Source of the DNA: Actinomycetota bacterium
GTDB taxonomy: Bacteria > Actinomycetota > UBA4738 > HRBIN12
Reading direction: 5' to 3'
Assembly: GCA_036519575.1 (NCBI GenBank)
Contig: DATDKZ010000162.1
Span: 1,628 to 65,627, forward strand
DNA length: 64,000 nucleotides
Of the stretch, positions 11,048-63,082 are shown one piece after another. The first letter of the stretch is position 1. Each line of letters starts with the position of its first letter. A model generated the notes under the pieces. It searched no databases. It was not told where the DNA came from and saw nothing but the letters and a program-made list of their open reading frames with translations. The translations under genes and the position numbers were made by a program.

Positions 11048-13222
11048 CTATGTGACGGCGAACTCTCGGGGTCCCGGGACCGACTCGAGCGGAAGCGTGG
11101 CCACGACCGTCGTCCCCCGTCCCGGGGTGGAATGCACCATGAACGTCCCGTTGGCGAGCTCGACTCGCTCGCGCATGGAGGCCAGGCCGACCCGGCCCAT
11201 CCGGAGGAACTCCCGGGCCTTGGCCGCATCGAAGCCCACGCCGTCGTCGATGATCTCGATCCGGAGCTGGCCGGCGACGGCCTCGACCGCGACCCCGATC
11301 CGCACGGCCTCGGCGTGCTTGCCCGCGTTCGACAGGGCCTCCTGCACCACCCGGTAGGCCAGGGTCTCCAGGTCCTGCGGGACCTCACCGACTCCCTGGG
11401 CGGCGAACTCGGCGTCGAGCTTGTTCTCGCGGCCGAACTTCTCCACGGTCTCCCGGAGGGCGGGCACCAGGCCCCGCTCCTCGAGCAGCGGGGGGCGGAG
11501 GCCGGCCATCAGCCGGCGAAGGTTGTCGGCCTCCTCGGCCAGCTCTTGGCGGACCTTGGTCAGGACCTCCATCCCCTCCCCGTCCTCGCCCGCTTTCAAC
11601 ATCAGGAGCACGGCCTCGAGCGAGAGCGACGCGGCCGACACGCCTTGCACCGGCCCGTCGTGGAGGTCGCGGGCGATGCGGTTGCGCTCGCTCTCGATGG
11701 CCGCGTTGGTCCGGCGCATGATCCGGGTCCGGTCCTCGTCGCGGTCCTGGAGGAACTTGAACAGGGAGCGGATGGTCTGGTCGGCGACGCGCTGGGCCGA
11801 GACGTCACGGACGAGCAGCAGCCGCCTCGGAGGGGCGCCCGGGATCTCCGAGGTGCGTGCCTCGAGATAGGTGGCGTTCCCCTCCTGGAGGAGCTTGCCC
11901 TGGCCGGTCGTCGGGAGGGCGGTGAAGGACTCGTCGGCCTCGATCGCGGCGGCGAGTGCCACCCATGGCTGGCCCTCGACCATGCTCTGGGGCAGGTCGA
12001 GCATGCTGCAGAAGGCCTCGTTGGCCCGAACGATCACGTCCTTGTGGTCCAGCTCCACGATGCCGTCAACAGCAGCTTCGAACACCAGCCGCAGGCGCTC
12101 CTCCGATTCGCGCAGCGTCTCGTTCGCCCGTTGAAGGCGCGCAAGCGCTTTGTCGGTCTCCCGCAGCGCCGCCTCCTTGGCTTCGAGCGCATCCTGGGCG
12201 TCGCGCGTGGCCTGGGTGCTCCGAAGCTGGTTCACCAGGATCCGAACCGCGACGGCCACACCGAGCACGTAGATGAGTCCGGAGGCCTGGACGGAACCGA
12301 TGATCGAGTTCGTCTCCATGGCCGCAACCAATCCCAGTGCGGCGCATGCGGTAGCCACGGCCACCGTGGTCAGTAGGGCGCGGCCAAATCGGGAGGGATG
12401 GGCGACCTGCCCATCGCCCATCCGCCTAGGCGCCGCGGTGACCACGAACGCCAGCCCCAGCGCACCGAGCGCGAGTGGGAGATCCACCGCGGACCGCCCC
12501 GACGTGTAGGTCCCACGGACCCACTGCTCGGCGAAGACCACCGCGCCGGCCGAGAAGGCGGCGATCGTGACGAACTGGCCGAGATGGGCGAGCGACGGGA
12601 CCCACAGGACGAGGGCTCCGTACGCTGTCAGCGCCGTGGCCACCATGATCGCGAACACGCCCGCCGACAGTGACTCGGTCGAGGTCGCCAGGGCGGGACG
12701 AAGTGCGAGGTACAGGATGACGGCGATGGAGGTCGCACCGAGGGCCACGTCGGCCGCGATCTGGCCTCGGAGCTCCTTCCGGAAGTGCTGACGGTACTCG
12801 ATCTCGATGGGGATGAAGAAGATGGCCCCGATGAGCAGGAAGAGGGAGTCGTAGGGGCTCGGTGAATACTCGATGCCGCTGCGAAAGTCATTGAACATGA
12901 ACAGGACGGCCACGACGGCCATCGCCAGGATTCCGAACGCAAGGAACGGCAGGCTCCGGAGGAGGCCGGCGGATCGAACCCTCCATAGGATGACGCCGGC
13001 CGACAGCACACAGGCCGCGGCGAGGACCGCGTCGTGGAGGCCGTCGGCGTCGACCAGCGAGGCACCCTCCAAGAGGTGGGTTGTGACCACCCCCGCCATG
13101 GCGACGCCGAGGACGCCAAGGACGAACCAGGTCGAGCGGCGGCGTGCCGCTTGGGTCGACATCATCGGCCCACTATGTTGCCTCGGAGGAAGGCTGGACT
13201 CCATCACCTGCATGGCGGTCAC
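11048..13222 (-). CDS. Membrane sensor histidine kinase (about 10 TM helices, PAS, HisKA_3, HATPase; NarL-partner type)
   Basis: H-box ARDLHDGPVQ and an ATPase G-box. Downstream of and co-oriented with a LuxR-type response regulator. Start uncertain (GTG 13222 or ATG-ATG at 13167). Confidence 0.8.
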   Translation of the reverse strand: MTAMQVMESSLPPRQHSGPMMSTQAARRRSTWFVLGVLGVAMAGVVTTHLLEGASLVDADGLHDAVLAAACVLSAGVILWRVRSAGLLRSLPFLAFGILAMAVVAVLFMFNDFRSGIEYSPSPYDSLFLLIGAIFFIPIEIEYRQHFRKELRGQIAADVALGATSIAVILYLALRPALATSTESLSAGVFAIMVATALTAYGALVLWVPSLAHLGQFVTIAAFSAGAVVFAEQWVRGTYTSGRSAVDLPLALGALGLAFVVTAAPRRMGDGQVAHPSRFGRALLTTVAVATACAALGLVAAMETNSIIGSVQASGLIYVLGVAVAVRILVNQLRSTQATRDAQDALEAKEAALRETDKALARLQRANETLRESEERLRLVFEAAVDGIVELDHKDVIVRANEAFCSMLDLPQSMVEGQPWVALAAAIEADESFTALPTTGQGKLLQEGNATYLEARTSEIPGAPPRRLLLVRDVSAQRVADQTIRSLFKFLQDRDEDRTRIMRRTNAAIESERNRIARDLHDGPVQGVSAASLSLEAVLLMLKAGEDGEGMEVLTKVRQELAEEADNLRRLMAGLRPPLLEERGLVPALRETVEKFGRENKLDAEFAAQGVGEVPQDLETLAYRVVQEALSNAGKHAEAVRIGVAVEAVAGQLRIEIIDDGVGFDAAKAREFLRMGRVGLASMRERVELANGTFMVHSTPGRGTTVVATLPLESVPGPREFAVT

Positions 13223-23491: not shown

Positions 23492-23565
23492 TGGAGCGGG
23501 CGAGGGGAATCGAACCCCCGTCTCGAGCTTGGGAAGCTCACGTTCTGCCATTGAACCACGCCCGC
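23492..23565 (-). tRNA. tRNA-Gly (anticodon CCC), 74 nt, CCA encoded
   Basis: Cloverleaf folded by hand: acceptor GCGGGCG/CGCCCGC, anticodon arm TGAGC-TTCCCAA-GCTCG, T-arm GGGGG-TTCGATT-CCCCT, then CCA. Confidence 0.85.
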
Positions 23566-25372: not shown

Positions 25373-28300
25373 TCAGCCGATCTGAGGATCGCCCGACCGG
25401 GCGCCCAGCCGGTACAGGGCTCCCTCGGCCGCGGCCACGACCTCCGGCACGGGGTCGTTGAGGACCGCCGCGACGATCGCATCCGCACCGCGCGGATCCC
25501 CCAGCGTGGCCAGGAACTGCGTGGAGCGGAGCCGGATCCGCTCGTCCGGATCCGAGAGCACCCCGATCAGGGCGTCGACGGCCTCGGGGCCACCGACCGC
25601 TCCGATGGCCTCGACGGCCCGTAACCGCGCATCCGCTTCCGTGGAGTCGAGGCGTCCCGCGAGCCGGGCCACCCCGACCACGTCTCGGAGCAAGCCACCC
25701 ACGATGGGCACCACTTCGGCGGTCCCGTGGAGCAACACGTCGATGAGCAACTCCTGCGACGAGGGCCCGATCTTCCTCAGAAGGTCGGTGGCGGCATCGC
25801 GCAGGTTGGGAACGGCCAGCACACCGGCCAGCCGCTTGGCAACCGCTGGCGAGCTCCATTGAGTGAGGACCTCGCTGGCAGCCGTTCGCACCCCCGCATC
25901 GTCGTCCTGGAGCGCAGCCACCAGGAAGCCGAGCACCGCCTCGTCGTCGATGACGCCCAGGGCTCGCACGGCCTCCACCCGAACCTCGGGGAACGAATCG
26001 CCGATGGCATTGCCCAGCGCTTGCACCGCGGACGTGTCGCGGAGGCGCCCGAGAGCCGACGCGGCCGCCGCCCGAACCGCGGGGACCGGATCCTGGAGGG
26101 ACTGGATCGATGCCTCGAGGCAAGCCTGGCTCCCGCTCCATCCGGCCAGCTCGAGGGCCAGCACCCGTTCGTCCTGGTCGGGCGACGCGTGGTGCTTGAG
26201 CGCGAGCTCGGTCAGGGCGGCTTCGTTGGTGTGGGAGAACACCGAGCCGAGCTCGGTCCGCTCCTCGGGTCGGCACTGGCGAAGGGCCGACCACACGAAC
26301 TCGTGATCGTTATCCTCCCTGGTAGCGAGCTGGTTCATGGCCGCGCGCCTGACCGATTCTTCCCCATCGGACAATCCCTGGAGAACGAAGGGATCGGCCT
26401 CCCGACCCAGGCCCGGCGCGAGCTCATCGAGGGCCGCGGCCCGAACGACCGGATCGAGATCGGCCATCGCCCGGGTCATGGCAGCGGAGGTATCGATGTT
26501 GGCCATGGCGATCACGTGGACGGCTGCGGCTCGAAGGGGCGCCGACTGATCGGTCTCAAGCACGAACCGGGCGATGTCCACGTAGCTCGGGTCGCCGGAT
26601 TCACCCATCACCTCCAGGACCGCCATGCGGACCGGAACCGACGAGTCGTCGAGATGTCCCCGAAGGTAGGGCATCACGGTCGGACCCGACGCGCTCCAGA
26701 GCACTCGGATCGCCTCTGGTTTGCGAGATTCGTCCACCTGCCCCAGCAGGCCGATGAGGTCCTCCAGCCGCACCCGGGCGAGGGCCTTCAGGAACGGGTC
26801 GCGCGCCTCGAGCGGAAGCTCCATCGCTCGGTTCAGGATGTCTAGTCCGAGCTCGTAAAGGCGGAGCGCGCCCACGGTCTCCGCCGCGGCGGACGCCATC
26901 TCCACGTCACCGGTGCGCATGGCTTCGCGGGCCCACGCCAGCACACGGCCTCGCTCCACCCCTCCCAGGCTCGACCGTGCGAGGTAGCGGACCGCCTCGT
27001 CTGCATCGTGCAACGACCGGGCGAGTGACGCGATGCGTTCGGCCTCCACCGGAGCAAGGGACGCGTCGTCGGCGAACTCCGTTCCGGCGACCGCGGACTC
27101 GTCGGTTCGGGCGATGGCGTCGGCGGCGACCTCCGCCACTTCGCGGATCTCGTCCAGGGGGTCCGAGACCAGGGTGGCCAGCGCCCGGAGGATCTCCGGA
27201 GCCTCTTCGCCCTCCACCAGGATCCGGACGGCCCCCAGACGCCTGACGTCGGGCAGCGACAGGCTACCGACCAGTCGCGAGATGCCGATGGCCCGGCTGA
27301 GCCGCGCGATCGATGTGCCTTCTGCGGTTGTGGGCGGGGAATCCATCTCGCCGATCGAGGTCAGGAGCAGGTCGAGCTCGGTCTCATCGAGGGTGGACGT
27401 CGATGCCAAGAGCTCGGGCAGCAGCTCGAGCGCTGCCGCTTGGGTGAGCGGCCAGCGGCGTGCGGCGATCAGCGGAGCAAGTAGCACGAGATCCCGAGAA
27501 CCACGTTCGGCTGCAAGGCGAACCGCCGCGGCCCGAACCTCGTCGGCTGGGTCCATGAGTGCCTGCTTGATCGTGGCGTCGTCGACACGGTCGGCCCGGT
27601 TCGACAGGACCCCTAGGGCCAACCGGCGGACCTCCTGATCCGGGTCGAGCAACAAGCCAACGACCTGCTCCAGCTCGCTATCGCCCGGGCCGCGCTCGTT
27701 AAGCTCCCGGAGGGCACGGCGCCGCTCGTCCGGATCGCGAGCGGCAAGCGAAGGGCCGACGGACTCCGGCTGGGGCTCCGGCGCCGGCTCCGGACGCGGC
27801 TCGTCAGCTTGGCTGGGCGCAACATCGGCTTTCCAAGCGCCGGCTTCGACAGCTTCAACGGCTTGGGCAGGTCCGCCCGGCTCGGCCGCGACGGCACGAT
27901 CCGGTTCGACGGGCTCGGGGCTGTGAGGAGCCTCCGGCTTTGCCGCCCTGAGCGCACTCAGCCGTCGCTGCAGGATTTCGACGGCCGAGGGCTTCGAGAC
28001 ATCCGCCGCAGGTTGCTCGGGCTCAACCGGCGCTGGCGGCTCGGGGATCTCCGCCGCAGGTTGCTCGGGCTCAACCGGCGCGGGCGGCTCGAGGATCTCC
28101 GCCGCAGGTTGCTCGGGCTCAACCGGTGCTGGCGCCTCTGACGTCTGGGGGGCAGGCTGCTCGAGCTTCGGCGGTGCCTGCGGCTCATCCTCGGACGAGC
28201 GCTGATCAGGCGGTTGCGAGGCGGCGGGGGCCTCCTCCTCATCCTCCTCCGCGATCTTGGCGCGGCGCTCTGCCAGCGCCTTCAAGCTCCGGTACCAATC

Positions 28301-28450
28301 CTCCTCGTACGCGTCCACCTGTTTGCCCTTCGGAGGTGAGCCATCCGCTTCGGAGCCCCCGGCTGCGCCGGAGGAGGCGTCACTGTCCTCGGATCCGTCT
28401 TCTCCCTTCTGGCCGAGGAAGCCGCCGATCAGACCCTGCTTGCGTTCCAT
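25373..28450 (-). CDS. Large HEAT-repeat (PBS-lyase/E-Z type) protein with an approximately 270-aa acidic Pro/Glu-rich disordered N-terminal region
   Basis: 1,025 aa with more than 15 degenerate HEAT units (DPxxEVRxxAxxxLGxLG). N-terminus MERKQGLIGGFLGQKGE…DWYRSLKALAERRAKIAEE, followed by 16-aa tandem repeats PPAPVEPEQPAAEIxE. Confidence 0.75.
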   Translation of the reverse strand: MERKQGLIGGFLGQKGEDGSEDSDASSGAAGGSEADGSPPKGKQVDAYEEDWYRSLKALAERRAKIAEEDEEEAPAASQPPDQRSSEDEPQAPPKLEQPAPQTSEAPAPVEPEQPAAEILEPPAPVEPEQPAAEIPEPPAPVEPEQPAADVSKPSAVEILQRRLSALRAAKPEAPHSPEPVEPDRAVAAEPGGPAQAVEAVEAGAWKADVAPSQADEPRPEPAPEPQPESVGPSLAARDPDERRRALRELNERGPGDSELEQVVGLLLDPDQEVRRLALGVLSNRADRVDDATIKQALMDPADEVRAAAVRLAAERGSRDLVLLAPLIAARRWPLTQAAALELLPELLASTSTLDETELDLLLTSIGEMDSPPTTAEGTSIARLSRAIGISRLVGSLSLPDVRRLGAVRILVEGEEAPEILRALATLVSDPLDEIREVAEVAADAIARTDESAVAGTEFADDASLAPVEAERIASLARSLHDADEAVRYLARSSLGGVERGRVLAWAREAMRTGDVEMASAAAETVGALRLYELGLDILNRAMELPLEARDPFLKALARVRLEDLIGLLGQVDESRKPEAIRVLWSASGPTVMPYLRGHLDDSSVPVRMAVLEVMGESGDPSYVDIARFVLETDQSAPLRAAAVHVIAMANIDTSAAMTRAMADLDPVVRAAALDELAPGLGREADPFVLQGLSDGEESVRRAAMNQLATREDNDHEFVWSALRQCRPEERTELGSVFSHTNEAALTELALKHHASPDQDERVLALELAGWSGSQACLEASIQSLQDPVPAVRAAAASALGRLRDTSAVQALGNAIGDSFPEVRVEAVRALGVIDDEAVLGFLVAALQDDDAGVRTAASEVLTQWSSPAVAKRLAGVLAVPNLRDAATDLLRKIGPSSQELLIDVLLHGTAEVVPIVGGLLRDVVGVARLAGRLDSTEADARLRAVEAIGAVGGPEAVDALIGVLSDPDERIRLRSTQFLATLGDPRGADAIVAAVLNDPVPEVVAAAEGALYRLGARSGDPQIG
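27992..28135. repeat. 48-bp coding tandem repeat, about three copies, inside the HEAT-protein gene
   Basis: The motif ccgccgcagg recurs at 48-nt intervals (period 48) with near-identical units that diverge in the third copy. Encodes 3 x PPAPVEPEQPAAEI. Confidence 0.7.
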
Positions 28451-28589: not shown

Positions 28590-29297
28590 TCACCGCCGCG
28601 TCGTTGCGTTGGAGGGCTCCACATGCTCCGGGTCCATCGCGAACGGCGTCGGACCGATCCCCATCGAGACCGCGGCCATCGCGGCCTGCGTGCGATTGCT
28701 CACGCCGAGCTTCCGGAAGACCGCTGCGAGGTGCGCTTTCACGGTCTTCTCGGACAGGAACAGGGCCCGGGAGATGTCTCGGTTGCTCTTTCCCTCGGCC
28801 AGCAGAGCCAGGATGTCGGTCTCTCGCTGCGTGAGGCTGGTCGACGGACGGCTGTGCGTCTCGCTTTGGTCGCCGCTTCCTACCTCCATGGCGTCGAACA
28901 GGTTCTGGATGACCCTTGGCGACAGGACGTTGCCGCCACCTGAGATCGCCACCTTGATCGCTTGCTCCAGGTCCTCCGGCGTCGCGTCCTTCAGCAGGTA
29001 CCCGGCGGCGCCCTCAGCCAGGGCTCGCCGCACGTAATGCGCATGGTCGAACGTGGTGAGCACGATCACGGGCACCTTGGGCCATCTGGTCCGCAGATCG
29101 TGGAGCAGCTCGAGCCCGTCTGTGTTCGGCATCCGCACGTCTACGAGGGCGACGTCAACCGGGTCTGCCTCCATCACCCGAAGAGCTTCGTCCGCGCCCG
29201 CAGTCTCCTCGACGTCCGCTTCGCTGAAGCATTCGCGCACGACGTGAGCCATGCCGCGACGCACCAGCGCGTGATCGTCAACGATCATGATCCTCAA
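28590..29297 (-). CDS. LuxR/NarL-family response regulator
   Basis: REC (MIVDDHALVRRG…VALVDVRMP) plus LuxR HTH (TQRETDILALLAEGKSNRDISRALFLSEKTVKAH). Confidence 0.85.
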   Translation of the reverse strand: MRIMIVDDHALVRRGMAHVVRECFSEADVEETAGADEALRVMEADPVDVALVDVRMPNTDGLELLHDLRTRWPKVPVIVLTTFDHAHYVRRALAEGAAGYLLKDATPEDLEQAIKVAISGGGNVLSPRVIQNLFDAMEVGSGDQSETHSRPSTSLTQRETDILALLAEGKSNRDISRALFLSEKTVKAHLAAVFRKLGVSNRTQAAMAAVSMGIGPTPFAMDPEHVEPSNATTRR

Positions 29298-30265
29298 GGT
29301 TCGTCTCCTTGCTCGTCGACGGGTAGCCGGGCGACCACCCGAGTCCCGCGCCCAGGGGACGACTCGATGTCGACGGTGCCGCGCACCTCCGCCACCAGGC
29401 GTCGCATCATCTCCAGACCCAGATGGCCCTCCCCCGGCTCCTCCGGGGAGGCCTCAAAGCCTTGTCCCCGGTCTTCGACCTGCACCTCGATGCGCCGTGG
29501 GGTCGCTTGAACCCTCACAGCCACGTCCTTTGATGCCGAATGCTTGGCCGCGTTGGCCACCCCTTCCCGGATGACGGAGGAGGCCGCCTGGAGGATCGGA
29601 CCGTGAACGGCGCGGACGTCGCCCTCGATCGACCAGGAGGCGGGGAGCCGCCACCGCTCCAGCACCTTCTGCACGACCAGCTCGAGCGATTCCTCCTGGC
29701 GCGATCCGTCCTCCGACGATCCATCAGGCGACAGGGCGGCCAGCATCCGCCGGATCTCCTCCAGAGCTCGTCGGAGCTCGGTCGCCGCCTCGGCCAGAGC
29801 CGCCGTGGCCTGCGTGGGGTCGAGCTCGACCCGTCTTGCCATCCACTCCAGTTCGAGCACCGACGCCGTCACGACCTGCGTGAGCCCATCGTGGATTGCA
29901 TAGGCCCACCGGGTGCGCTCCTTCGCGTATGGATCGTCGAGTCCCTCCGAGGCGGAGGGTCTCCGGCCCGCGAGCGACGAAAGCATCCCTCGCAACGCGG
30001 CGACCGAGCGGACGGAAGACTTCGGAGTGAGGCGGGCGAACACCAGGTCGTCACCGCGCGGGCATGCGATCCAGCCCTCGGCCCGTCCTTCGAGCACATC
30101 GTCGAGGTGAAGGGGAAGCGGTCCCGACCCGGGTGTGGCCCACCAGGCGATCCTCCGAGAGGACTGGCCGGATCGCATGATGCCCACGGCGTCGAGGTTC
30201 AAGAGCTCGGCGAGGCGCCGGCATTCGGCGGCTTCGTCGGCCTCGTGGACGACAGCTGTCTCCAC
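29294..30265 (-). CDS. Cytoplasmic sensor histidine kinase (N-terminal GAF-like/unknown sensory domain, HisKA_3, HATPase)
   Basis: H-box RWAYAIHDGLTQ; G-boxes DRGQGF / GLGLEMM; no TM segment. GTG 30265 preceded by AAGGAAGGG. ATGA overlap with the regulator gene. Confidence 0.75.
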   Translation of the reverse strand: METAVVHEADEAAECRRLAELLNLDAVGIMRSGQSSRRIAWWATPGSGPLPLHLDDVLEGRAEGWIACPRGDDLVFARLTPKSSVRSVAALRGMLSSLAGRRPSASEGLDDPYAKERTRWAYAIHDGLTQVVTASVLELEWMARRVELDPTQATAALAEAATELRRALEEIRRMLAALSPDGSSEDGSRQEESLELVVQKVLERWRLPASWSIEGDVRAVHGPILQAASSVIREGVANAAKHSASKDVAVRVQATPRRIEVQVEDRGQGFEASPEEPGEGHLGLEMMRRLVAEVRGTVDIESSPGRGTRVVARLPVDEQGDEP

Positions 30266-30502
30266 CCGTTCCCTTCCTTCTCGGCCGGCACGGCCCACGG
30301 TCGTGCTGCCTGCCTCTCGCCCTTGATATCGCGGACGACACCGGGGGTCGTCCGTTCGACCAAGCCAAGCCGTTCGGTCTAGTTCTTCCTTCGGAAAGTT
30401 CAGGGGCGCGCTTGAACCGGCGCCCCGAGGCAACCGCGGCGATGGAAGTCGCGGGGGGGTCGGCGAGCGCGACCCGTCGGTCCAAGAGGACCAGGGAGGG
30501 GG

Positions 30503-32515
30503 CTACTCCGAAGGGACTAGGTGATCCCTCGACATGGCCAGGATCTGCGCGACGTCGGCTACTTCCACGTCGTCGCCCCGGGCCCGGGCTCCATCGTCCA
30601 ACATCACGAGGCAGAAGGGACAGGCCACACCGACCATGTCCGCGCCGGTGGAAGCGGCCTCGTCCATGCGCTCCCGGTTGATGCGCTTCCCGATCCGCTC
30701 CTCCATCCACATCCGGGCTCCCCCCGCACCGCAACACAGGCCCCGGGTCCCGTGGCGGGGCATCTCAACGGTCGACAGGCCGGGTACCGAATCCAGGAGC
30801 TGCCGCGGCTCCCCGTAGACGCCGTTGTGCCGCCCCAGGTAGCAGGGGTCGTGATAGGCGAGCAGGGCCCGCACCGGGCCCGTTGGTCGGAGGCGGCCGT
30901 CCTCGACCAGTTGGGCGAGCAGCTGGGTGTGATGGAGCACCTCGTACCGACCCCCATAGTCCGGGTACTCGTTGCGGAGCACGTTGAAGCAGTGAGGGCA
31001 GTTGGCCACGATCTTGGTGACTCCCGAGCCGTCGAGCGTGGCCACGTTCTGCTCCGCCAACGTCTGGAAAAGGTACTCGTTCCCGATGCGGCGAGCCGGG
31101 TCGCCGGTGCACAGCTCCTGCGGTCCAAGGATGGCGAAGGACACTCCGGCATCGCGGAGGAGGCCGGCCACGGCGCGCGAGACTCCGCGGGCTCGGTCGT
31201 CGAACGAGCCGGCGCATCCTACCCAGTAGATGAACTCCGGAGCTTGCTCGCCCGGGCCGAGCTGAGGCACATCCATCCCCTCGGCCCACGTCGCGCGCTG
31301 TGACTGGGGCTGACCCCACGGGTTCCCGGAAGTCTCCAGGTTCCGAAGGAGCTCGGCCGACTCGGGAGGGAATCGTGACTCACCCATCACCAGGTTCCGA
31401 CGGAGGTCGACGATGTGGTCGATGTGCTCGATGTCCACGGGACACTCCTGCATGCACGCGCCGCACGTCGTGCAGGCCCACACGACCTCTTCGTCCACGA
31501 TCTCTGGGACGAGCGGGGTCTTCCGGATATCGCCGGACGTCGTTCCGGCCTCGAGGATCTTCGGTCCTTCCTCGAACAGGTGGTCCCGGAGGTTCATGAT
31601 CAAGAGCTTCGGCGACAGCGGCTTGCCGGTGTTCCAAGCCGGACACGCGCTCTGACATCTCCCGCATTCGGTGCACGCGTAGAGGTCCAGGGCCTCCTTC
31701 CACGTGAGGTCCTCGACCGTCGCGGCGCCGAGCCGCATCTGGTCGGTGTCGGGCGCGTCCACGTCGATCCGGAGCGGCGTCAAGTACCCCCGGGGTTTGG
31801 TGTTCGAGAAGAACACGTTGATCGAACTGGTGAAGATGTGCAGGTGCTTCGAATACGGGATGTAGACCAGGAACCCCAGGATGAGCAGGAGATGTGTCCA
31901 CAGGAAGAACGGCTCGTAGAGACGAAGCACCGTCGGGGTCATGGGCTCGAACACGCGAGCGAGCCCGCGCGAGAGGGGTGTCCACGTGGGGTCGGCCTCG
32001 GCGATGCCCCGGGCGATCCGGATCGCGTTCAGCGCGAACAGCGTGAGCATGATGCCGAGGATCCACACCAGGATGAGGTCCGCCTCCTGCATGTGGCTGC
32101 CCACGAACCGCTCCGGGCGTTGGACCTTGCGGATGGCGAAGGCCATGAGGACCCCGATCACGACCAGGAGGGCGAACAGGTCCTGGAGAAGCCCGAGCCA
32201 CCCGCTGCGACCGATCAACGGCAGGGCGAAATCCGGCTCGACTGCCTGCCCCATGGCTTCGATGATCGTGGTCAGAAGCACCAGGAAGCCCCAGAAGATG
32301 AGCGCGTGCATCACCCCGGGCAGGAGGCGCTGGAGAAGCTTTCGCTGGCCGAGCACGACGGTCACCTCGCGCTCCACCCTCACCGGCACGTCGCGCGTTC
32401 GATCCACGGCCCGGCCCAGACGCACCAGCCCGTACAGCAGGCGGGCGCGCCGGGCGAAGAGTCCCGCCGCAGCGGCAACGAGGGCCAGGAGGATCGCCGC
32501 AGGCAGGAGCATCAA
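30503..32515 (-). CDS. Membrane-bound Fe-S oxidoreductase (NarI-like heme-b membrane domain fused to HdrD/GlpC-like domain; mycobacterial Rv0338c-type)
   Basis: 670 aa: 5-6 N-terminal TM helices, CxxCxxCxxxCP ferredoxin motifs (CTECGRCQSACP, CTTCGACMQECP), C-terminal Cys-rich CCG repeats. Confidence 0.7.
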   Translation of the reverse strand: MMLLPAAILLALVAAAAGLFARRARLLYGLVRLGRAVDRTRDVPVRVEREVTVVLGQRKLLQRLLPGVMHALIFWGFLVLLTTIIEAMGQAVEPDFALPLIGRSGWLGLLQDLFALLVVIGVLMAFAIRKVQRPERFVGSHMQEADLILVWILGIMLTLFALNAIRIARGIAEADPTWTPLSRGLARVFEPMTPTVLRLYEPFFLWTHLLLILGFLVYIPYSKHLHIFTSSINVFFSNTKPRGYLTPLRIDVDAPDTDQMRLGAATVEDLTWKEALDLYACTECGRCQSACPAWNTGKPLSPKLLIMNLRDHLFEEGPKILEAGTTSGDIRKTPLVPEIVDEEVVWACTTCGACMQECPVDIEHIDHIVDLRRNLVMGESRFPPESAELLRNLETSGNPWGQPQSQRATWAEGMDVPQLGPGEQAPEFIYWVGCAGSFDDRARGVSRAVAGLLRDAGVSFAILGPQELCTGDPARRIGNEYLFQTLAEQNVATLDGSGVTKIVANCPHCFNVLRNEYPDYGGRYEVLHHTQLLAQLVEDGRLRPTGPVRALLAYHDPCYLGRHNGVYGEPRQLLDSVPGLSTVEMPRHGTRGLCCGAGGARMWMEERIGKRINRERMDEAASTGADMVGVACPFCLVMLDDGARARGDDVEVADVAQILAMSRDHLVPSE

Positions 32516-56898: not shown

Positions 56899-57282
56899 AT
56901 GGATGCGCCCGTGCAGACCAGCGTGCTCGTCGTCGACGACGAACCCCAAGTCGTCTGGATGCTCCAGTTCAGCCTGGAGGCCGAGGGGTTCCAGACCTTC
57001 GCCGCGCGTGACGGCCGGACGGCCCTCGACGAGCTCCGCGAGCATCGCCCGCAGCTCATGCTCTTGGACATCATGATGCCGGTCATGGACGGCTGGAGCG
57101 TGCTCCAGGAGATCCGGGACCTCCCCGAGACCGAACGCCCCCGCGTGGTCGTGGTCTCGGCGCGGGCAACCCTTCGCGACCGGGCCAAGGCCGCCGAGCT
57201 CGGGGCCATCGCATTCGTGGCCAAGCCGTTCAACGTCGATGACTTGCTGGGCGTCCTCAACCGACTGAAGAAGGCCAGCTAG
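56899..57282 (+). CDS. Single-domain CheY-like response regulator (orphan)
   Basis: 127 aa REC only: VLVVDDEPQ…LMLLDIMMPVMDGW…KPF. Confidence 0.75.
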   Translation: MDAPVQTSVLVVDDEPQVVWMLQFSLEAEGFQTFAARDGRTALDELREHRPQLMLLDIMMPVMDGWSVLQEIRDLPETERPRVVVVSARATLRDRAKAAELGAIAFVAKPFNVDDLLGVLNRLKKAS

Positions 57283-57300: not shown

Positions 57301-57702
57301 TCAGCGCGGGAAGCGCTGGTGGTCCTTCGGCACGACCGTCGTCCCCACGGCCCTGCACGTTAGGATGGGTTCTTGCAGGAACTCCGCGGCGGACTCGGAC
57401 ACGTCGGACCGGGGCCCACCGATCTTCCACACCTCGAACTCGCACCGTCGCGATGTGGTTCCCACCGACACGATCCGGCCATTCGCCTCGATCCAGTCTC
57501 CCGCGAACAGCGGATGGAGGAACTCGACCGACTCATAGGCGCGGAACAGGCCCTCGTCGCCGTCGTAGCGCATGGCCAGCTCGGTGATGAGGTCGCCGAT
57601 CACCTCGAGCTGCTTGGCCCCGGCCACCAGGTTGCCACCGTAGTGCGAGTCCTCGTTTCCCAGTCGGCGGCGGATGAAGGCGGTGGGAAGCTCTTCGGCC
57701 AT
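57301..57702 (-). CDS. Hotdog-fold protein (PaaI/4HBT thioesterase-like or 3-aminobutyryl-CoA ammonia-lyase-like)
   Basis: 133 aa. HYGG…A(x6)GD motif and central AxGxVVxxGRR strand pattern typical of hotdog thioesterases. RBS GGGGAGGT lies 10 nt upstream of the ATG. Confidence 0.5.
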   Translation of the reverse strand: MAEELPTAFIRRRLGNEDSHYGGNLVAGAKQLEVIGDLITELAMRYDGDEGLFRAYESVEFLHPLFAGDWIEANGRIVSVGTTSRRCEFEVWKIGGPRSDVSESAAEFLQEPILTCRAVGTTVVPKDHQRFPR

Positions 57703-57720
57703 CGGCTGTGACCTCCCCAC

Positions 57721-57930
57721 CTAGCGAGAGACGACCTTGCCGAAGCGCACGCCGCGCCTCGGCACCCGGGCCAGCTCGCCGTCCTTCCTCCGAACCAGGT
57801 ACGTCTCGGCGGCCTCATCGTAGGCCACGAGGATCCCCACGACCTCGCCCACATAGCCGTTGGGGAGCTCGAACTGGAACGAGACGCGAGTACCGATGTC
57901 ATCCGGCGACACCTGGTTCGGGGCCTTCAT
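57721..57930 (-). CDS. Small hypothetical beta-rich protein (69 aa)
   Basis: ORF packed between the binding-fold gene and the hotdog gene (24-nt and 18-nt gaps); no Shine-Dalgarno seen; weak resemblance to Tudor/KOW-like small domains. Confidence 0.35.
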   Translation of the reverse strand: MKAPNQVSPDDIGTRVSFQFELPNGYVGEVVGILVAYDEAAETYLVRRKDGELARVPRRGVRFGKVVSR

Positions 57931-57954
57931 CGCCGGGAGGATACCGGACCTCGC

Positions 57955-58872
57955 TTACGGCTCGACGCGGGTGATCGATCCGTCCGGCGGCTCGGGGAAG
58001 GCCTGCGGGTGCACGGCCCAGGCCAGGATCTCCAGGCCATCGACGATCCGCGGCCCGGGGCGGGAGAAGAACGAGGTCGCGTCGACCGCGAACACCGTCC
58101 CCTCACGAGCCGCCGGGGTCTCGACGAATTCGGCGTTGCGGTAGAGCTGGGCGGCCTCCCCCTCCGCCTCCTCCAGGTAGTAGCCGCAGGGCATGAACAC
58201 CACGACCTCGGGGTTGGCATCCCGGATCTCCCGCCAGGTCACCACCCGGGAGGGGTGTTCCTTCTCGGTCAGCAGGTTCACCCCGCCGACCGTCTCCACC
58301 ATGTCGGGGACCCAATGGCCCGCGGCGAACGGCGGATCGAGCCACTCCTGGCACAGGACCCGGATCGAGGGGAGTCGGACCGCCTTGGCCCGTACCGCTT
58401 CGACACGAGCGCGGAGCGCGCCGACGATCTCGTCGGCGCGCTCCGCCCTTCCAAGCGTTGTGCCCACCGCCCGGATACCTTCCAGCACCTCGTCGAACGT
58501 GTGCGGATCGAGCGAGAGGACCTTCGCATCGCGAACGCCGATCTCCTCGAGCGCCTCCTGCACCTGTCCGCTGGGGACGGCGCACACGCGGCAGAGGTCT
58601 TGCGTCAGGATCACGTCCGGCTCGAGCTGTTGGATCAGCTCCTTCTCCAGGACGTAGATCGGCTCCTGGCGGTCCATCCGGTCTCGGACCTCCTCGTCGA
58701 TCTCGCGGGAGGAGAGCGGCCGTCCCTGAGGGAGCGCGCTCTTCACCACCACGGGCTTGGAAGTGGCCTCGGGCGGGTAGTCGCATTCGTACGTCACCCC
58801 GACGAGATCGTCGCCCAGGCCCAGCGCGTACACGATCTCCGTGGCGGAGGGCAGGAGCGACACGATCCTCAT
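57955..58872 (-). CDS. Cytoplasmic periplasmic-binding-protein-fold protein (TroA/BtuF class III-like, no signal peptide)
   Basis: 305 aa. N-terminal MRIVSLLPSATEIVYALGL…LVGVT is the class III SBP signature but without leader or lipobox. ATGA overlap with the E2 gene. Confidence 0.6.
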   Translation of the reverse strand: MRIVSLLPSATEIVYALGLGDDLVGVTYECDYPPEATSKPVVVKSALPQGRPLSSREIDEEVRDRMDRQEPIYVLEKELIQQLEPDVILTQDLCRVCAVPSGQVQEALEEIGVRDAKVLSLDPHTFDEVLEGIRAVGTTLGRAERADEIVGALRARVEAVRAKAVRLPSIRVLCQEWLDPPFAAGHWVPDMVETVGGVNLLTEKEHPSRVVTWREIRDANPEVVVFMPCGYYLEEAEGEAAQLYRNAEFVETPAAREGTVFAVDATSFFSRPGPRIVDGLEILAWAVHPQAFPEPPDGSITRVEP

Positions 58873-60086
58873 CGGGGGAGTGCCTCCAGCCGGTCGGGGG
58901 AGGAGAGGGCCGCGACCAGGTCGCCGAACGCCCGGCCGGCGGTCGCACCGTCCAGCAGTCGGTGATCGAAGGTCAGCGAGAGCGTGCACGCGGGCCGGGC
59001 CACCACCTGCCCATCGACGATCAGCGCCCGGGGGGCGATGGCGCCCAGGCCGAGGATCGCGGCCTGGGCCCGATTGATGATGGGCGTGCCGAACTCTGAG
59101 CCGTAGCTCCCGGTGTTCGTCACCGTGATCGTTCCGCCGGTCATCTCCTCGATCCGGATGGAGCCGTCGCGCGCCGCCGAGGCCAGTCGCTGGATCTCGG
59201 CCGCGACCTCGCCCAGCGTCAGGTCCCCGACGTCTCGAACCACCGGCACCAGGAGCCCTCGTTCGGTGTCGGTGGCGATGCCGACGTGGACCCGCCGGTG
59301 CAGCCAGATCTGGCCCTGCTCGGCCATATACGACGCGTTGAGGCTTCGATGGTCCTTGCACACGTCGGCTAGGGCCCGGACGACGATCGGCAGTGGCGAC
59401 AGGCCGGCTTCTCGACGGAACGCCTCCAGAGCCGTGGAGTCGAGCGTCCGAAACGTGGTGACCTGTGGCACTTCCCGAACGACCCGAGTGAGGTTCTCGG
59501 CGATCGTTCTCCGGATCATCGAGATGGGTCTGACCTCGGCGTCGGTGGGCATCATCATCGTCCACAGGGCGCGGGCTCCGGCCCGCTGCCCCTGCTCGAG
59601 GGCCGGAGCCATCCCCACGCCGGGCGATGCCTGCCCTTCCTCGGCGGGCGCGCGGACCTCCGCCGCCACCGGCGTGCCCGACCGAGCGGCTCGATCCACG
59701 TCCTCGTGAGTGACCCTTCCACCCGGACCGGATCCGGCGATCACGCCCAGCTCCACCCCGAGCTCCTTGGCTCGCCGGCGAACGGCCGGGGTGGCCGGCA
59801 CTGTGGCCGGCCCTGCATCCTCTTCCGCCGCCGCCTCCCCGTCCTCCTCGACCTCGAAGGTGACTAGGGGCGCTCCCACCTTGACGGTCTCTCCCACCTT
59901 CCCGTGCAGTTGGTCGATCGTCCCGGCGAAGGGTGAGGGGATCTCCACGGTTGCCTTGGCCGTCTCCACCTCGACGATCGGCTGGTTCAGCGAGACCGGG
60001 TCGCCCTCCTTCACCAACCAGGCAGTGATCGTGGCCTCCTCGAGGCCCTCGCCCAGGTCCGGCAAGGCGAAGACTCGCTCGGCCAT
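58869..60086 (-). CDS. Dihydrolipoamide acyltransferase (E2) of a 2-oxoacid dehydrogenase complex
   Basis: Lipoyl domain (VEVETAKATVEIPSP, lipoyl-Lys), E3-binding segment, catalytic DHRLLDGA. Confidence 0.85.
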   Translation of the reverse strand: MAERVFALPDLGEGLEEATITAWLVKEGDPVSLNQPIVEVETAKATVEIPSPFAGTIDQLHGKVGETVKVGAPLVTFEVEEDGEAAAEEDAGPATVPATPAVRRRAKELGVELGVIAGSGPGGRVTHEDVDRAARSGTPVAAEVRAPAEEGQASPGVGMAPALEQGQRAGARALWTMMMPTDAEVRPISMIRRTIAENLTRVVREVPQVTTFRTLDSTALEAFRREAGLSPLPIVVRALADVCKDHRSLNASYMAEQGQIWLHRRVHVGIATDTERGLLVPVVRDVGDLTLGEVAAEIQRLASAARDGSIRIEEMTGGTITVTNTGSYGSEFGTPIINRAQAAILGLGAIAPRALIVDGQVVARPACTLSLTFDHRLLDGATAGRAFGDLVAALSSPDRLEALPR

Positions 60087-61060
60087 CAGTGGCTCACCAC
60101 CGTGCGCACGGCGGCCGTGATCCGCTCGATGCTGGGCAGGTACCGCTGTTCGAGGGCCGCCGGCGGATACGGTACGTCGTAGCCCGTCACCCGAAGAACC
60201 GGCGCCTCCAGGTAGTCGAACCCCTCCTCCATGACCCGGGCGGCGATCTCGGCGCCCATCCCCAACGTCCGAGGTGCCTCGTGTACCACGACGACGCGGC
60301 CGGTCCTCCGCACGGACTCGGCGAGCGTCTGGAGGTCGAGGGGAACGAGCGAGCGGAGGTCGAGCACGCGGCAGGAGAGGCGTTCACGCGCAAGGACCTC
60401 GGCCGCCTCGAGACATCGCGTGACCATGGCCCCATAGGTGACGAGTGTGCAGGCGTCGCCCTCCCGCCGGATCCACGCCCTGCCGATGGGCGGCCCATCC
60501 ACCGCGAGCTCGCCATGTTCCTTGGCCCAGTACCGGCTCTTCGGCTCGAGAAAGATCACCGGGTCGGGGTCGGCGATCGCGAGCGCCAGCAATCGGTAGG
60601 CGTCCAGCGCGCCTGATGGGACCACCACCTTCAGCCCGGCTGTATGCGCGTAATAGGTCTCCGGGCTCTCGCCGTGGTGCTCCTTGCCCCGGATACCGCC
60701 GAACGAGGGGATCCGTATGACGATCGGCATCGAGGTCCGGCCCCGCGTGCGCGTCCGGTACTTGGCGATATGGCTGACGATCTGGTCAAGCGCCGGATAG
60801 GAGAACCCATCGAACTGCATCTCGGCGACGGGCCGCCAGCCGGCCAGCGAGAGGCCGACGCAGATCCCGGCGATTCCGGCCTCCGCGATCGGCGTGTTGA
60901 ACACCCGTTCCGGGCCGAATGCGCGCTGCAGGCCCTCGGTGACGCGATACACTCCGCCGAGCTCACCGACGTCCTCACCGAACACCAGCGTCCGGGGGTC
61001 GTTGTTCAGGGCATCGCGGAGCGCGGCGTTCAGCGCGGCGACCATCGTGTACTCAGCCAT
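60086..61060 (-). CDS. 2-oxoacid dehydrogenase E1 component beta subunit
   Basis: 324 aa transketolase-like C-terminal fold; MAEYTMVAALNAALRDALNNDPRTLVFGEDVG. Confidence 0.9.
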   Translation of the reverse strand: MAEYTMVAALNAALRDALNNDPRTLVFGEDVGELGGVYRVTEGLQRAFGPERVFNTPIAEAGIAGICVGLSLAGWRPVAEMQFDGFSYPALDQIVSHIAKYRTRTRGRTSMPIVIRIPSFGGIRGKEHHGESPETYYAHTAGLKVVVPSGALDAYRLLALAIADPDPVIFLEPKSRYWAKEHGELAVDGPPIGRAWIRREGDACTLVTYGAMVTRCLEAAEVLARERLSCRVLDLRSLVPLDLQTLAESVRRTGRVVVVHEAPRTLGMGAEIAARVMEEGFDYLEAPVLRVTGYDVPYPPAALEQRYLPSIERITAAVRTVVSH

Positions 61061-62123
61061 CCGGCCCCTCGGTCACCGATCGCCGGTCGCGCTCCAGGCT
61101 TTCGGGCGGCTCCGCATAGGCGAAGGCGAAAAGCTCCTCGGGCGGCGGCGGCCCGAGGGAGGTGATCCCGGCCCGAACGTCGGCCACCCACTCCTTCGCC
61201 TCGTCCTCGCAATCGGCCACGAACGACTCGTCGGCAATCCCCGAGGCCAGCAAGTGCTTCAGGTACCGGTCGATGGGATCGCGCTCGCGCCACAGCCCGA
61301 CCTCGTCCGCGCTCCGGTACCTCGTCGCGTCGTCGGCGGTGGAATGCGGCCCCATCCGATAGGTCAACGCCTCGATCAGCGTGGGACCGTCGCCGGCCCG
61401 GGCCCGTTCGGCCGCCGCCCTCGTGACCGAGTACACGGCCAGGACGTCGTTCCCGTCGACGAGCACGCCGGGCATGCCGTACCCTTCGGCCCGAGCGTGG
61501 ATCGGCCCCGCCGCCTGCTCCCGGAGCGGGACCGAGATGGCCCACCCGTTGTTCTGACAGAACAGGATGGCGGGGGCGCCGAACACTGCGGCCATGTTGG
61601 CCGCCTCGTGGAAGTCGCCTTCCGACGTGGCTCCATCGCCGAAGTACGCCAGGGCGCACACGGGTAGATCGTCGAACCTTGCGCCCATGGCCCACCCAAC
61701 GGCGTGCACGATCTGGGTGGCGACCGGGACGCAGATCGGCGCGAACCGGCTGGCGATGGGGTCGTACGGACCCCCGTGCCAGACTCCTCGATGATATTGG
61801 AGGTACTCGACGACGTCGACGCCTCTGGCCACGGCCGCGGCGAGCTCGCGGAAGGACGGGAACACGAAGTCGTCGGGCTCCAGGGCGAAGGCGCTTCCCA
61901 CCTGGGCCGCCTCCTGGCCCTCGAATGGCGGGTACACGGTGAGCTCGCCCTGACGCTGGAGCGCCATGCACTCGCGATCCAGGCGGCGGGACAGGATCAT
62001 CAGCCGCAACAGGTCGCGAAGCTCATCGGCCTTCAGACCAACGTCGGTGTCGCCGACCGCCGTTCCGTCGGGCGCGACCAGCCGCACCGGGGCGGCGTCG
62101 TGCAGGTCCTCGTGCATGGCCAT
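61053..62123 (-). CDS. 2-oxoacid dehydrogenase E1 component alpha subunit (TPP-binding; PDH/BCKDH/acetoin type)
   Basis: TPP motif GDGATSEGDFHEAANMA…NNGWAIS; start MAMHEDL preceded by GAGGT. Confidence 0.85.
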   Translation of the reverse strand: MAMHEDLHDAAPVRLVAPDGTAVGDTDVGLKADELRDLLRLMILSRRLDRECMALQRQGELTVYPPFEGQEAAQVGSAFALEPDDFVFPSFRELAAAVARGVDVVEYLQYHRGVWHGGPYDPIASRFAPICVPVATQIVHAVGWAMGARFDDLPVCALAYFGDGATSEGDFHEAANMAAVFGAPAILFCQNNGWAISVPLREQAAGPIHARAEGYGMPGVLVDGNDVLAVYSVTRAAAERARAGDGPTLIEALTYRMGPHSTADDATRYRSADEVGLWRERDPIDRYLKHLLASGIADESFVADCEDEAKEWVADVRAGITSLGPPPPEELFAFAYAEPPESLERDRRSVTEGPDG

Positions 62124-62164
62124 GGTCACCGACCTCGGACGGCGGCGGGTGTGCGAGAGCATAT

Positions 62165-62983
62165 ATGCTGCTCCGCGACGTGGTCCCTTGCGCCTACCTC
62201 CGCGCGTTCCAGCCTCTGGAGGCGTTCCCGCTCGATGAGCAGGCCCGGTGGGAGCGCTACATCGTCGGAGGAGGGATGCTCCGCCGGCCGCGGCCCACCT
62301 ACCGGCAGTGGATGAGCGGCCGGCGCCTCGGCGTCCTGGCCGCTTCGGAATCCGACGGCGCCGATATCCGACTCGAGAAGGGCGCCTACTTCGTGTGCCC
62401 ATGGCGGACCAGGCTCCGGGTGCTGGCCAGCCTGTTGTCCTTCCGCGAGGCTGCACAGTTCGAGGGGAGCGAAGCGTTCGTGAGCGACCGGGAGGCCCGC
62501 CGGGCTTCCAGGGAGCTGGCCAGGATCCGGCGGCGGGATCCGAAGGCCGTCTCGTTCATCATGCAGAGCCCCTGGCACGTCCCCGTCAGGTGGTTCGTGC
62601 TGTTCGGGGAGGGCGATCGGCGGCTCGAGGAGCACGGGGGCCGCCATCGGCTCCGGTACCTGACCACCGTGCGCAAAGCGGCGCGTCGGGCTGAGCGGGC
62701 CATCCCCGGGCTCCGGCGGACGGACCTGGGGCCGGTGGCCGACATGATCGTCGAGCTCTATGAGTGGCTCGGTGCCTTCGACCGCCGATCGCTGCTCGAG
62801 CTGGATTACGGTGGCCTGAGCGACCTCATGACATGGGACGAGCTCGACGACGATCATTCTGCCCGCGACATCCAGACGGCGCTGAAGGCTCTCTCGTCTG
62901 AGGAGTTCCCGCGCTCGGCCGAGCTGTACCAGTCGGTCATCAGCCGGTGGGCCGAGGTCCGGGGCCACGAGGCCTTGAACTGA
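62165..62983 (+). CDS. Conserved hypothetical protein (272 aa)
   Basis: Clean ORF diverging from the E1alpha gene; no motif I can name. Confidence 0.45.
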   Translation: MLLRDVVPCAYLRAFQPLEAFPLDEQARWERYIVGGGMLRRPRPTYRQWMSGRRLGVLAASESDGADIRLEKGAYFVCPWRTRLRVLASLLSFREAAQFEGSEAFVSDREARRASRELARIRRRDPKAVSFIMQSPWHVPVRWFVLFGEGDRRLEEHGGRHRLRYLTTVRKAARRAERAIPGLRRTDLGPVADMIVELYEWLGAFDRRSLLELDYGGLSDLMTWDELDDDHSARDIQTALKALSSEEFPRSAELYQSVISRWAEVRGHEALN

Positions 62984-63009: not shown

Positions 63010-63082
63010 TGGCCAGGGGCAGAATCGAACTGCCGACACCGCGGTTTTCAGCCGCGTGCTCTGCCAACTGAGCTACCTGGCC
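63010..63082 (-). tRNA. tRNA-Phe (anticodon GAA), 73 nt, CCA not encoded
   Basis: GGCCAGGTAGCTCAGTTGGCAGAGCACGCGGCTGAAAACCGCGGTGTCGGCAGTTCGATTCTGCCCCTGGCCA folds as a canonical cloverleaf with anticodon loop CUGAAAA. Confidence 0.85.

Follow-up and report, generated by a model that had tools for sequence, protein, structure and literature searches.

A bkd-like 2-oxoacid dehydrogenase operon overlapping the gene for a predicted cytoplasmic, putatively corrinoid-handling BtuF-like protein in an Actinomycetota genome

The DNA analyzed (the window) was a stretch of 64,000 nucleotides (nt) from an Actinomycetota bacterium (GenBank assembly GCA_036519575.1, contig DATDKZ010000162.1). The subject of this report was a cluster of six open reading frames (ORFs) near its end, in which the genes for E1alpha, E1beta and E2 of a 2-oxoacid dehydrogenase are followed by genes for a BtuF-like binding-fold protein (gene 4), a small SH3-like protein (gene 5) and a hotdog-fold protein (gene 6). 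The best explanation of the whole, held at roughly even probability, was a bkd-like operon co-translated with a cytoplasmic, corrinoid-handling BtuF-like protein of an uncharacterized family, here called the four-cysteine family. Gene 4 itself was read as probably encoding a cytoplasmic corrinoid-handling protein because distant members of its family adjoin cobalamin riboswitches, CobQ, BtuB/BtuFCD-like genes, PduO and NrdJ. All six ORFs were on the minus strand. Re-reading of the ORF coordinates bore out the layout, overlaps and gaps given in the initial annotation of this DNA, and Pfam and NCBIfam profile searches bore out the domain assignments of all six genes, which were as follows.

61053-62123, minus strand: E1alpha of a heterotetrameric 2-oxoacid dehydrogenase (bkdA/pdhA type; PF00676, 1.3e-79)
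60086-61060, minus strand: E1beta (Transket_pyr and Transketolase_C domains), 8-nt overlap with E1alpha
58869-60086, minus strand: E2 dihydrolipoyl acyltransferase (PF00364, PF02817 and PF00198), 1-nt overlap with E1beta
57955-58872, minus strand: gene 4, BtuF-like binding-fold protein of 305 amino acids (PF01497, Peripla_BP_2, 8.4e-23)
57721-57930, minus strand: gene 5, SH3-like protein of 69 amino acids (PF24551, SH3_Rv0428c), 24-nt gap after gene 4
57301-57702 (from ATG), minus strand: gene 6, hotdog-fold protein of the beta-aminoacyl-coenzyme A (CoA) ammonia-lyase family (KAL/ACL-like)

The gene 4 protein was identical to GenBank HEY6678831.1, from a metagenome-assembled Actinomycetota genome. 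Its AlphaFold2 model had a predicted local distance difference test score (pLDDT) of 92 and a predicted template modelling score (pTM) of 0.90. A Foldseek search with this model returned class III heme/B12 binding proteins at a template modelling score of ~0.8 (normalized to the target), among them 4m7o, ShuT (2r7a), BtuF (5ysc, 1n4a and 1n2z; probability 1.00), RhuT and IsdE. When the protein was compared with PDB sequences using HMMER, BtuF was among the best matches (5ysc, 1.4e-16; E. coli BtuF, 5e-9). The class III binding fold (BtuF/heme type) proposed in the initial annotation was therefore borne out by Pfam, AlphaFold2 and Foldseek. Among the curated families no threshold was passed, the BtuF model NF002894 giving 51.1 bits against a cutoff of 234.

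The first beta-strand of the gene 4 model begins at residue 2, and the in-frame translation upstream of the gene is E2 coding sequence, in which no hydrophobic stretch was found. A signal peptide, named in the initial annotation as the sign of an ordinary exported protein, was thus not found, and the protein is predicted to be cytoplasmic and not an exported transport component. Both public annotation pipelines label gene 4 a transport component, and if its true start lay further upstream it would be an ordinary exported substrate-binding protein; this was given next to no probability, since the upstream frame is accounted for by E2, thousands of homologues of 303-305 amino acids begin at the same residue, and no permease or ATPase gene is adjacent, so that the sequence already refutes it. 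No BtuC/FecCD permease or BtuD ATPase linked to gene 4 was seen in the window or in 81 loci of its clade.

Gene 4 was compared with 1.84 billion cluster representatives in an exhaustive search, which gave 14,289 relatives; 1,125 of these (clusters at 50% identity) had E<=1e-30. Nearly all were ~300 residues long and aligned from their own first residue; 127 of 128 full-length representatives had <=16 residues before the first strand, from which it follows that members of the four-cysteine family are cytoplasmic as a rule and that the short N-terminus of gene 4 is not an accident of gene calling. Four cysteines (C30, C94, C97 and C229) occurred in every one of 81 clade members. In 128 distant representatives, with identities as low as 37%, they were still >=98% conserved, and Q91, W177, P180 and W187 reached the same level. 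The family was spread over Actinomycetota, Nitrospiraceae, Thermodesulfobacteriota and Acidobacteriota, plus one locus with archaeal-type genes. Members fused to a DCC1-like thiol-disulfide oxidoreductase, GGACT, CoaE or an E2 C-terminus were also seen; these fusions are single cluster representatives, may be gene-calling artefacts and serve as hints only. No description of a cytoplasmic BtuF-like or four-cysteine cobalamin-binding family was found in the literature searched, coverage of which was incomplete.

Gene 4 was mapped onto BtuF by HMMER alignments, the secondary structure of the model and the corrin contact residues of E. coli BtuF described in its structure papers. By this mapping P8-S9 near the N-terminus and W177, F182 and R271 in the C-lobe would fall on BtuF corrin contacts. 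The aromatic contacts of the BtuF N-lobe appear to be replaced by E29-C30, an insertion, and Q91 with a longer CxxC loop, and C229 is predicted to sit in a C-lobe loop that faces the cleft.

The reading of gene 4 as corrinoid-handling was drawn from distant members (36-50% identical to gene 4), which were sampled from long contigs and from a metagenome scan; the query for the metagenome locus search was an alignment of seven sequences. Cobalamin riboswitches (RF00174, 67-114 bits) were found in 10 of 86 distant-member loci (L083, L084, L087, L112, L125, L126, L127, L130, L133 and L169, with L125 and L127 near-duplicates). At L112, L125 and L127 the riboswitch ends 83-135 nt upstream of the family member, and the next gene encodes CobQ (cobyric acid synthase; 620 and 560 bits, cutoff 273). 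Further on come another riboswitch, a gene for a TonB-dependent receptor and one for a true BtuF-like protein that is extended at its N-terminus. A riboswitch, a TonB-dependent receptor and then the family member were found at L083, L084, L087 and L126. The full order at L126 was riboswitch, receptor, DUF6580, Dph6-like ATP pyrophosphatase and family member; at L083 it was riboswitch, receptor, a gene without assignment, family member, BtuF-like gene, ABC ATPase and FecCD permease, so that the ABC genes have a true BtuF-like gene of their own in addition to the family member. At L091 a PduO-type adenosyltransferase (139 bits against a cutoff of 108) lay 50 nt downstream of the family member. 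The order (NrdJ)-...-HAD-member-HpnD was common to 14 loci, a count inflated by the way in which the metagenome hits were ordered, namely by their likeness to one member from this cluster; NrdJ itself (adenosylcobalamin-dependent reductase model, 689 bits) was seen in the 7 loci whose flank reaches it.

Further genes recurred at these loci. DUF6580, a membrane protein of ~175 amino acids, lies between a riboswitch-controlled TonB-dependent receptor and the next genes (L126, 3650-4165; L130, 7021-7551; also L132 and L157) and may be an unrecognized inner-membrane corrinoid transporter. It was considered as a BtuM homologue and rejected, as it had no similarity to any PDB chain; no mention of it was found in the literature searched. 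A Dph6-like ATP pyrophosphatase (PF01902, diphthine-ammonia ligase family) was a recurrent upstream neighbour of the family member, at L126 (4179-4859, inside the B12-riboswitch operon), L130 (5232-5933), L131 (1248-2081) and ~7 further loci; its product might amidate a corrinoid carboxylate during salvage. A protein of 490-498 amino acids without Pfam or NCBIfam match was encoded between the riboswitch-controlled receptor and the family member at L083 (3388-4884) and L087 (3301-4773). The full order of the NrdJ cluster (L082, L085, L092-L102 and L136) was NrdJ, (Memo), a 208-amino-acid protein without assignment, HAD hydrolase, family member, HpnD (presqualene diphosphate synthase) and a flavin adenine dinucleotide (FAD) oxidase, which connects a B12-dependent reductase with hopanoid or squalene genes; the NrdJ gene of L085 contains an intein. 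A gene of the phosphoenolpyruvate (PEP)-mutase family, which overlaps the end of the family member at six loci, was considered as a methylisocitrate lyase; it reached only 102 bits against a cutoff of 354 and was not taken as evidence.

The best reading, in full, is that the gene 4 protein would bind a corrinoid inside the cell, where its thiolates, or a metal or iron-sulfur (Fe-S) centre held by them, would serve to hold, process or hand over the corrinoid. It would act as a soluble escort from the importer or biosynthetic enzymes to the adenosyltransferase or B12 enzymes. A plausible reason for the coupling to E2 is that breakdown of branched-chain 2-oxoacids, and so of valine and isoleucine, yields propionyl-CoA and isobutyryl-CoA, which feed adenosylcobalamin-dependent mutases; in actinobacteria it is through methylmalonyl-CoA mutase that propionyl-CoA of branched-chain amino-acid origin is tied to adenosylcobalamin (PMC12713380). 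A broader proposal, put forward tentatively and at somewhat below even probability, is that the four-cysteine family is a widespread cytoplasmic carrier or processor in B12 trafficking, taking corrinoids from importers, CobQ and Dph6-like proteins to the adenosyltransferase and B12 enzymes, and that in this clade of soil actinobacteria it is hard-wired to branched-chain catabolism that feeds the acyl-CoA mutases. The initial annotation had suggested release of an acyl-CoA product by a thioesterase, or cofactor delivery, within one pathway. Delivery of a corrinoid-type cofactor is supported by the gene contexts of other family members; the acyl-CoA thioesterase and the single pathway are not supported.

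Several observations weigh against this reading. Most distant members had no evident B12 context, their neighbours being NamZ, MatE, PadR or the PEP-mutase-family gene. No cobalamin riboswitch was found in the window or in 10 clade loci (137 kb), and no B12-dependent enzyme was found among the ~30 window genes checked. The public names of gene 4 and its homologues ("cobalamin-binding protein" or "iron complex transport system substrate-binding protein") are domain-based, and corrinoid binding is a prediction for all members. The cleft could be occupied not by a corrin but by a metal site, structural or catalytic, formed by the four invariant cysteines. The link to the dehydrogenase is also dispensable, because seven related loci keep gene 4 without E1 and E2.

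The coupling to E2 was examined by locating all six proteins with tblastn in 81 related loci, in which the binding protein was 63-99% identical. In the window, the ATGA overlap of the E2 stop and gene 4 start was read directly in the sequence (CCCCGATGAGGATCGTG); we know of no other case of a binding-fold gene overlapping an E2 stop. Of the 74 loci with enough flank, 66 had E2 upstream of the binding-protein gene at a distance of <=100 nt, and the two genes mostly overlapped or were 0-6 nt apart. The arrangement of these two genes is more than chance, and the coupling claimed in the initial annotation is kept through a clade of uncultured Actinomycetota. Outside this set, a 59% identical relative (L090) had E1beta, binding protein and SH3-like gene in order, a 61% identical relative (L160) had E1alpha-E1beta-E2-binding protein-SH3, and in another lineage (L167) the binding-protein gene preceded a luciferase-like gene and E1alpha/E1beta/E2, all in the same orientation.

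The remainder of the cluster was less stable. Wherever the flank allowed (62 loci), an SH3-like gene was found near the binding-protein gene; in 61 of these it lay downstream and had the same orientation, and in L036 an inversion had placed it on the other strand. The two genes directly adjoined each other in 34 of the 62 loci, and in 27 they were separated by intervening genes (0.6-2.4 kb), among them a PNP_UDP_1 phosphorylase and an EamA permease. The hotdog gene followed the SH3-like gene in 36 of these loci and was absent in 26, and all six genes were contiguous in only 15 of 60. Seven loci (L020, L031, L044, L045, L048 and L049, plus L060) were without E1 and E2 genes yet retained the binding-protein and SH3-like genes; in E1/E2-less loci the divergent gene (DUF8083) that flanks the cluster in the window lies 85-103 nt from the start of the binding-protein gene. 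Because of these E1/E2-less loci, the insertions before the SH3-like gene and the missing lyase, the six genes do not form one fixed pathway; the stable features are the junction of E2 with the binding-protein gene and an SH3-like gene nearby. The single six-gene catabolic pathway of the initial annotation was accordingly not upheld, and the last genes occurring as an independent unit, which it had named as evidence to the contrary, is largely what was seen, in the form of binding protein plus SH3-like gene in the seven loci.

The three dehydrogenase genes were examined for features that would set them apart. E1alpha contains a GDG-X26-NN thiamine diphosphate motif, read in the translation, and E2 has a single lipoyl domain with the lysine in ETAKA, an E3-binding domain and a catalytic domain with a DHRLLDG motif. 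No E3 (dihydrolipoamide dehydrogenase) gene was found between the flanking DUF8083 and response-regulator genes. In actinobacteria E3 is usually encoded outside such operons, and the dehydrogenase would take its E3 from elsewhere in the genome. By these motifs and domains E1alpha, E1beta and E2 appear to be a standard, complete heterotetrameric-E1/E2 set in which nothing unusual is seen, and the suggestion of the initial annotation that this is something other than a pyruvate dehydrogenase (PDH), branched-chain 2-oxoacid dehydrogenase or acetoin operon did not hold for the dehydrogenase genes themselves. E1alpha barely passes TIGR03181 (412.8 bits; cutoff 411), a profile that bears the name of pyruvate dehydrogenase, and the best solved relatives of E1alpha were about equal (Thermus branched-chain dehydrogenase 1um9, 3.5e-68; Geobacillus PDH 1w85, 7e-67). 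A gene of the Glu/Leu/Phe/Val amino-acid dehydrogenase family lies directly upstream of E1alpha in ~12 related loci; because of this neighbour and the usual actinobacterial division of labour among 2-oxoacid dehydrogenases, branched-chain 2-oxoacids (a bkdABC-like enzyme) are the most likely substrate class.

Two alternatives bear on the adjacency of gene 4 and E2. It may be without meaning, the binding-protein and SH3-like genes being old residents of the interval from purM to DUF8083, with the bkd genes inserted upstream or lost and the overlap a result of compaction. The E1/E2-less loci, which show the same flanks (DUF8083 at 85-103 nt, purM and the response regulator), the housekeeping nature of the region and the free shuffling of the downstream neighbours are all consistent with this. 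It was nevertheless judged fairly unlikely, as the junction stays tight (0-6 nt mostly) while E1alpha drops to ~56% identity and other junctions are broken by insertions, and the family co-localizes with E1/E2 genes in other arrangements (L090 and L167). At the other extreme, the gene 4 protein, produced in proportion to E2, could serve the dehydrogenase itself, either as an accessory subunit or by delivering a cofactor, with the complex or its acyl-CoA product as the target; this was the view of the initial annotation. This would suit the ATGA overlap, the adjacency kept in 66 of 74 loci, the gene directly after E1beta at L090 and the second type of E1/E2 co-localization at L167; it is weakened by the seven loci that keep gene 4 and its SH3 neighbour without E1/E2 at the locus. 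The family is moreover far wider, most members being unlinked to 2-oxoacid dehydrogenases, and the fold gives no hint of lipoate, thiamine diphosphate or CoA binding. An accessory role was considered distinctly improbable.

In the main rival to corrinoid handling, a metal ion or Fe-S cluster bound by the four cysteines would itself be the cargo or the active centre, and the protein would serve as a chaperone for cobalt, iron or zinc, as a store or in a minor redox role. The cysteines are near-invariant and drawn from both lobes, and they include a CxxC; the wider TroA-like superfamily contains metal-ion receptors, and gene 4 weakly matches NF038402; and fusions to the DCC1-like thiol-disulfide oxidoreductase occur. 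B12 riboswitches also control cobalt supply genes. Against it, the nearest relatives in sequence and fold are of the B12 and heme class and not the metal-ion class, W177, F182 and R271, which align with BtuF corrin contacts, are conserved, and the neighbours in the B12 operons (CobQ, PduO, the BtuB-like receptor and BtuFCD-like genes) act on corrinoids and not on cobalt ions. A metal or Fe-S protein was considered unlikely on balance, and corrinoid handling was retained as the preferred reading.

Gene 5 matched PF24551 (SH3_Rv0428c) over residues 11-60 with 28.9 bits against a cutoff of 27; its association with the binding protein is specific to this lineage. The same domain was also seen as the C-terminal part of a protein of ~260 amino acids with a DUF4234 membrane segment (L024, 6814-7581; L050, 9633-10427). 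The ATG start of gene 6 leaves an 18-nt gap to gene 5, and an alternative GTG at 57720 leaves none. Gene 6 matched the full profile of NF052388 (3-aminobutyryl-CoA ammonia lyase) with 150.1 bits, below the equivalog cutoff of 160, and the beta-alanyl-CoA:ammonia lyase Acl2 (PDB 4mtu) with 1.5e-22; matches to thioesterases in the PDB were at chance level (E>=0.016), and PF03061 gave just 28 bits. Of the two identities proposed for it in the initial annotation, the hotdog fold with likeness to ammonia lyases was retained and the thioesterase was dropped, and gene 6 is assigned by these matches to the beta-aminoacyl-CoA ammonia-lyase family. This KAL/ACL-like lyase is an optional neighbour of the binding protein. 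No lysine-fermentation genes (kamA, kamDE, kdd or kce) were found among the window genes examined.

The cluster ends a housekeeping stretch that includes penicillin-binding proteins, two-component systems, panB, dnaB, dnaK-grpE-dnaJ, clpB and a long pur run, and it is bounded by two genes:

56899-57282, plus strand: stand-alone response-regulator receiver gene (PF00072, 5e-27), convergent with the operon end
62165-62983, plus strand: divergent conserved gene, DUF8083 (precomputed hits), 41 nt from the E1alpha start

The response-regulator gene was syntenic in most related loci. As the divergent E1alpha and DUF8083 starts are only 41 nt apart (62124-62164), transcripts would be leaderless or promoters would lie inside coding sequence. 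Consensus scans gave one weak promoter-like site in E1alpha and three weak terminator-like sites in gene 4, about the number expected from shuffled sequence; such scans are uninformative for an actinobacterium of this composition (G+C of the region ~69%).

Other features of the window and its relatives were recorded. Two transfer RNA (tRNA) genes were present (63010-63082 and 23495-23565, both minus strand); the former is syntenic with tRNA genes that adjoin DUF8083 in relatives, several of which carry small tRNA clusters there. An 89% identical relative (L081) has a sulfite-oxidase-like molybdopterin oxidoreductase gene (11559-12632) between purF and purL that is not there in the window. At 25373-28450 (minus strand) a protein of 1025 amino acids, mostly HEAT repeats and unusually large for a bacterium, is encoded next to a LuxR-type two-component pair (28590-30433). 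At 30503-32515 (minus strand), directly upstream of and divergent from dnaK-grpE-dnaJ, lies the gene for an HdrD/GlpC-like protein of 670 amino acids with two CCG cysteine-rich domains and a 4Fe-4S dicluster domain.

Little is known of how bacteria escort corrinoids, strip them of ligands and reduce them on the way from the inner-membrane importer to the adenosyltransferase or B12 enzymes; a recent review counts decyanation and processing in mycobacteria as an undetermined step (PMC12713380). The four-cysteine family is a concrete, testable candidate for such a step because it combines a BtuF-like cleft, four invariant cysteines predicted to line it and recurrence in B12-riboswitch operons. 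What is new here is a cytoplasmic, cysteine-rich version of a known fold in a large, apparently unstudied family; the dehydrogenase part is ordinary. Two annotations were corrected, in that the "iron complex transport substrate-binding protein" is by prediction not an exported transport component and the "thioesterase" belongs to an ammonia-lyase family. The case also indicates that apparent operon extensions need testing against related genomes before a pathway is proposed.

Compared with known systems, gene 6 aligns over its full length (~130 amino acids, hotdog fold) with Kal and Acl2 (4mtu); unlike Kal, it falls below the equivalog cutoff and has no lysine-fermentation genes nearby. The dehydrogenase genes resemble those of the actinobacterial and Thermus branched-chain enzymes (M. 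tuberculosis BkdABC; 1um9) in having an alpha plus beta E1, a single-lipoyl E2, three overlapping genes and no E3 gene, and differ in that the window E1alpha scores just above the cutoff of the pyruvate-dehydrogenase-named TIGR03181. MMACHC/CblC, MMADHC and BtuM hold B12, with cysteine or thiols ligating or processing the cobalt (PMC6072759, PMC12501144); their likeness to the four-cysteine family is a functional analogy only, the folds being unrelated. The class III heme binders (ShuT, PhuT, HmuT, RhuT and IsdE) match gene 4 in fold as well as BtuF does (2r7a, 2r79, 5y8b and 2q8p), but unlike gene 4 they are exported, and their axial ligands are Tyr or His; no heme-related gene context was seen for the four-cysteine family, whereas cobalamin riboswitches were. 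From BtuF (1n2z, 1n4a and 5ysc) gene 4 differs in having no signal peptide, lipobox, or adjacent permease or ATPase, in being ~50 residues longer with an insertion at residues 40-75, and in its four invariant cysteines; with BtuF it shares two Rossmann-like lobes linked by a long helix, and its N-terminal P-S/A-x-T-E motif and the PPF and SRPxPR segments of its C-lobe align with those of BtuF.

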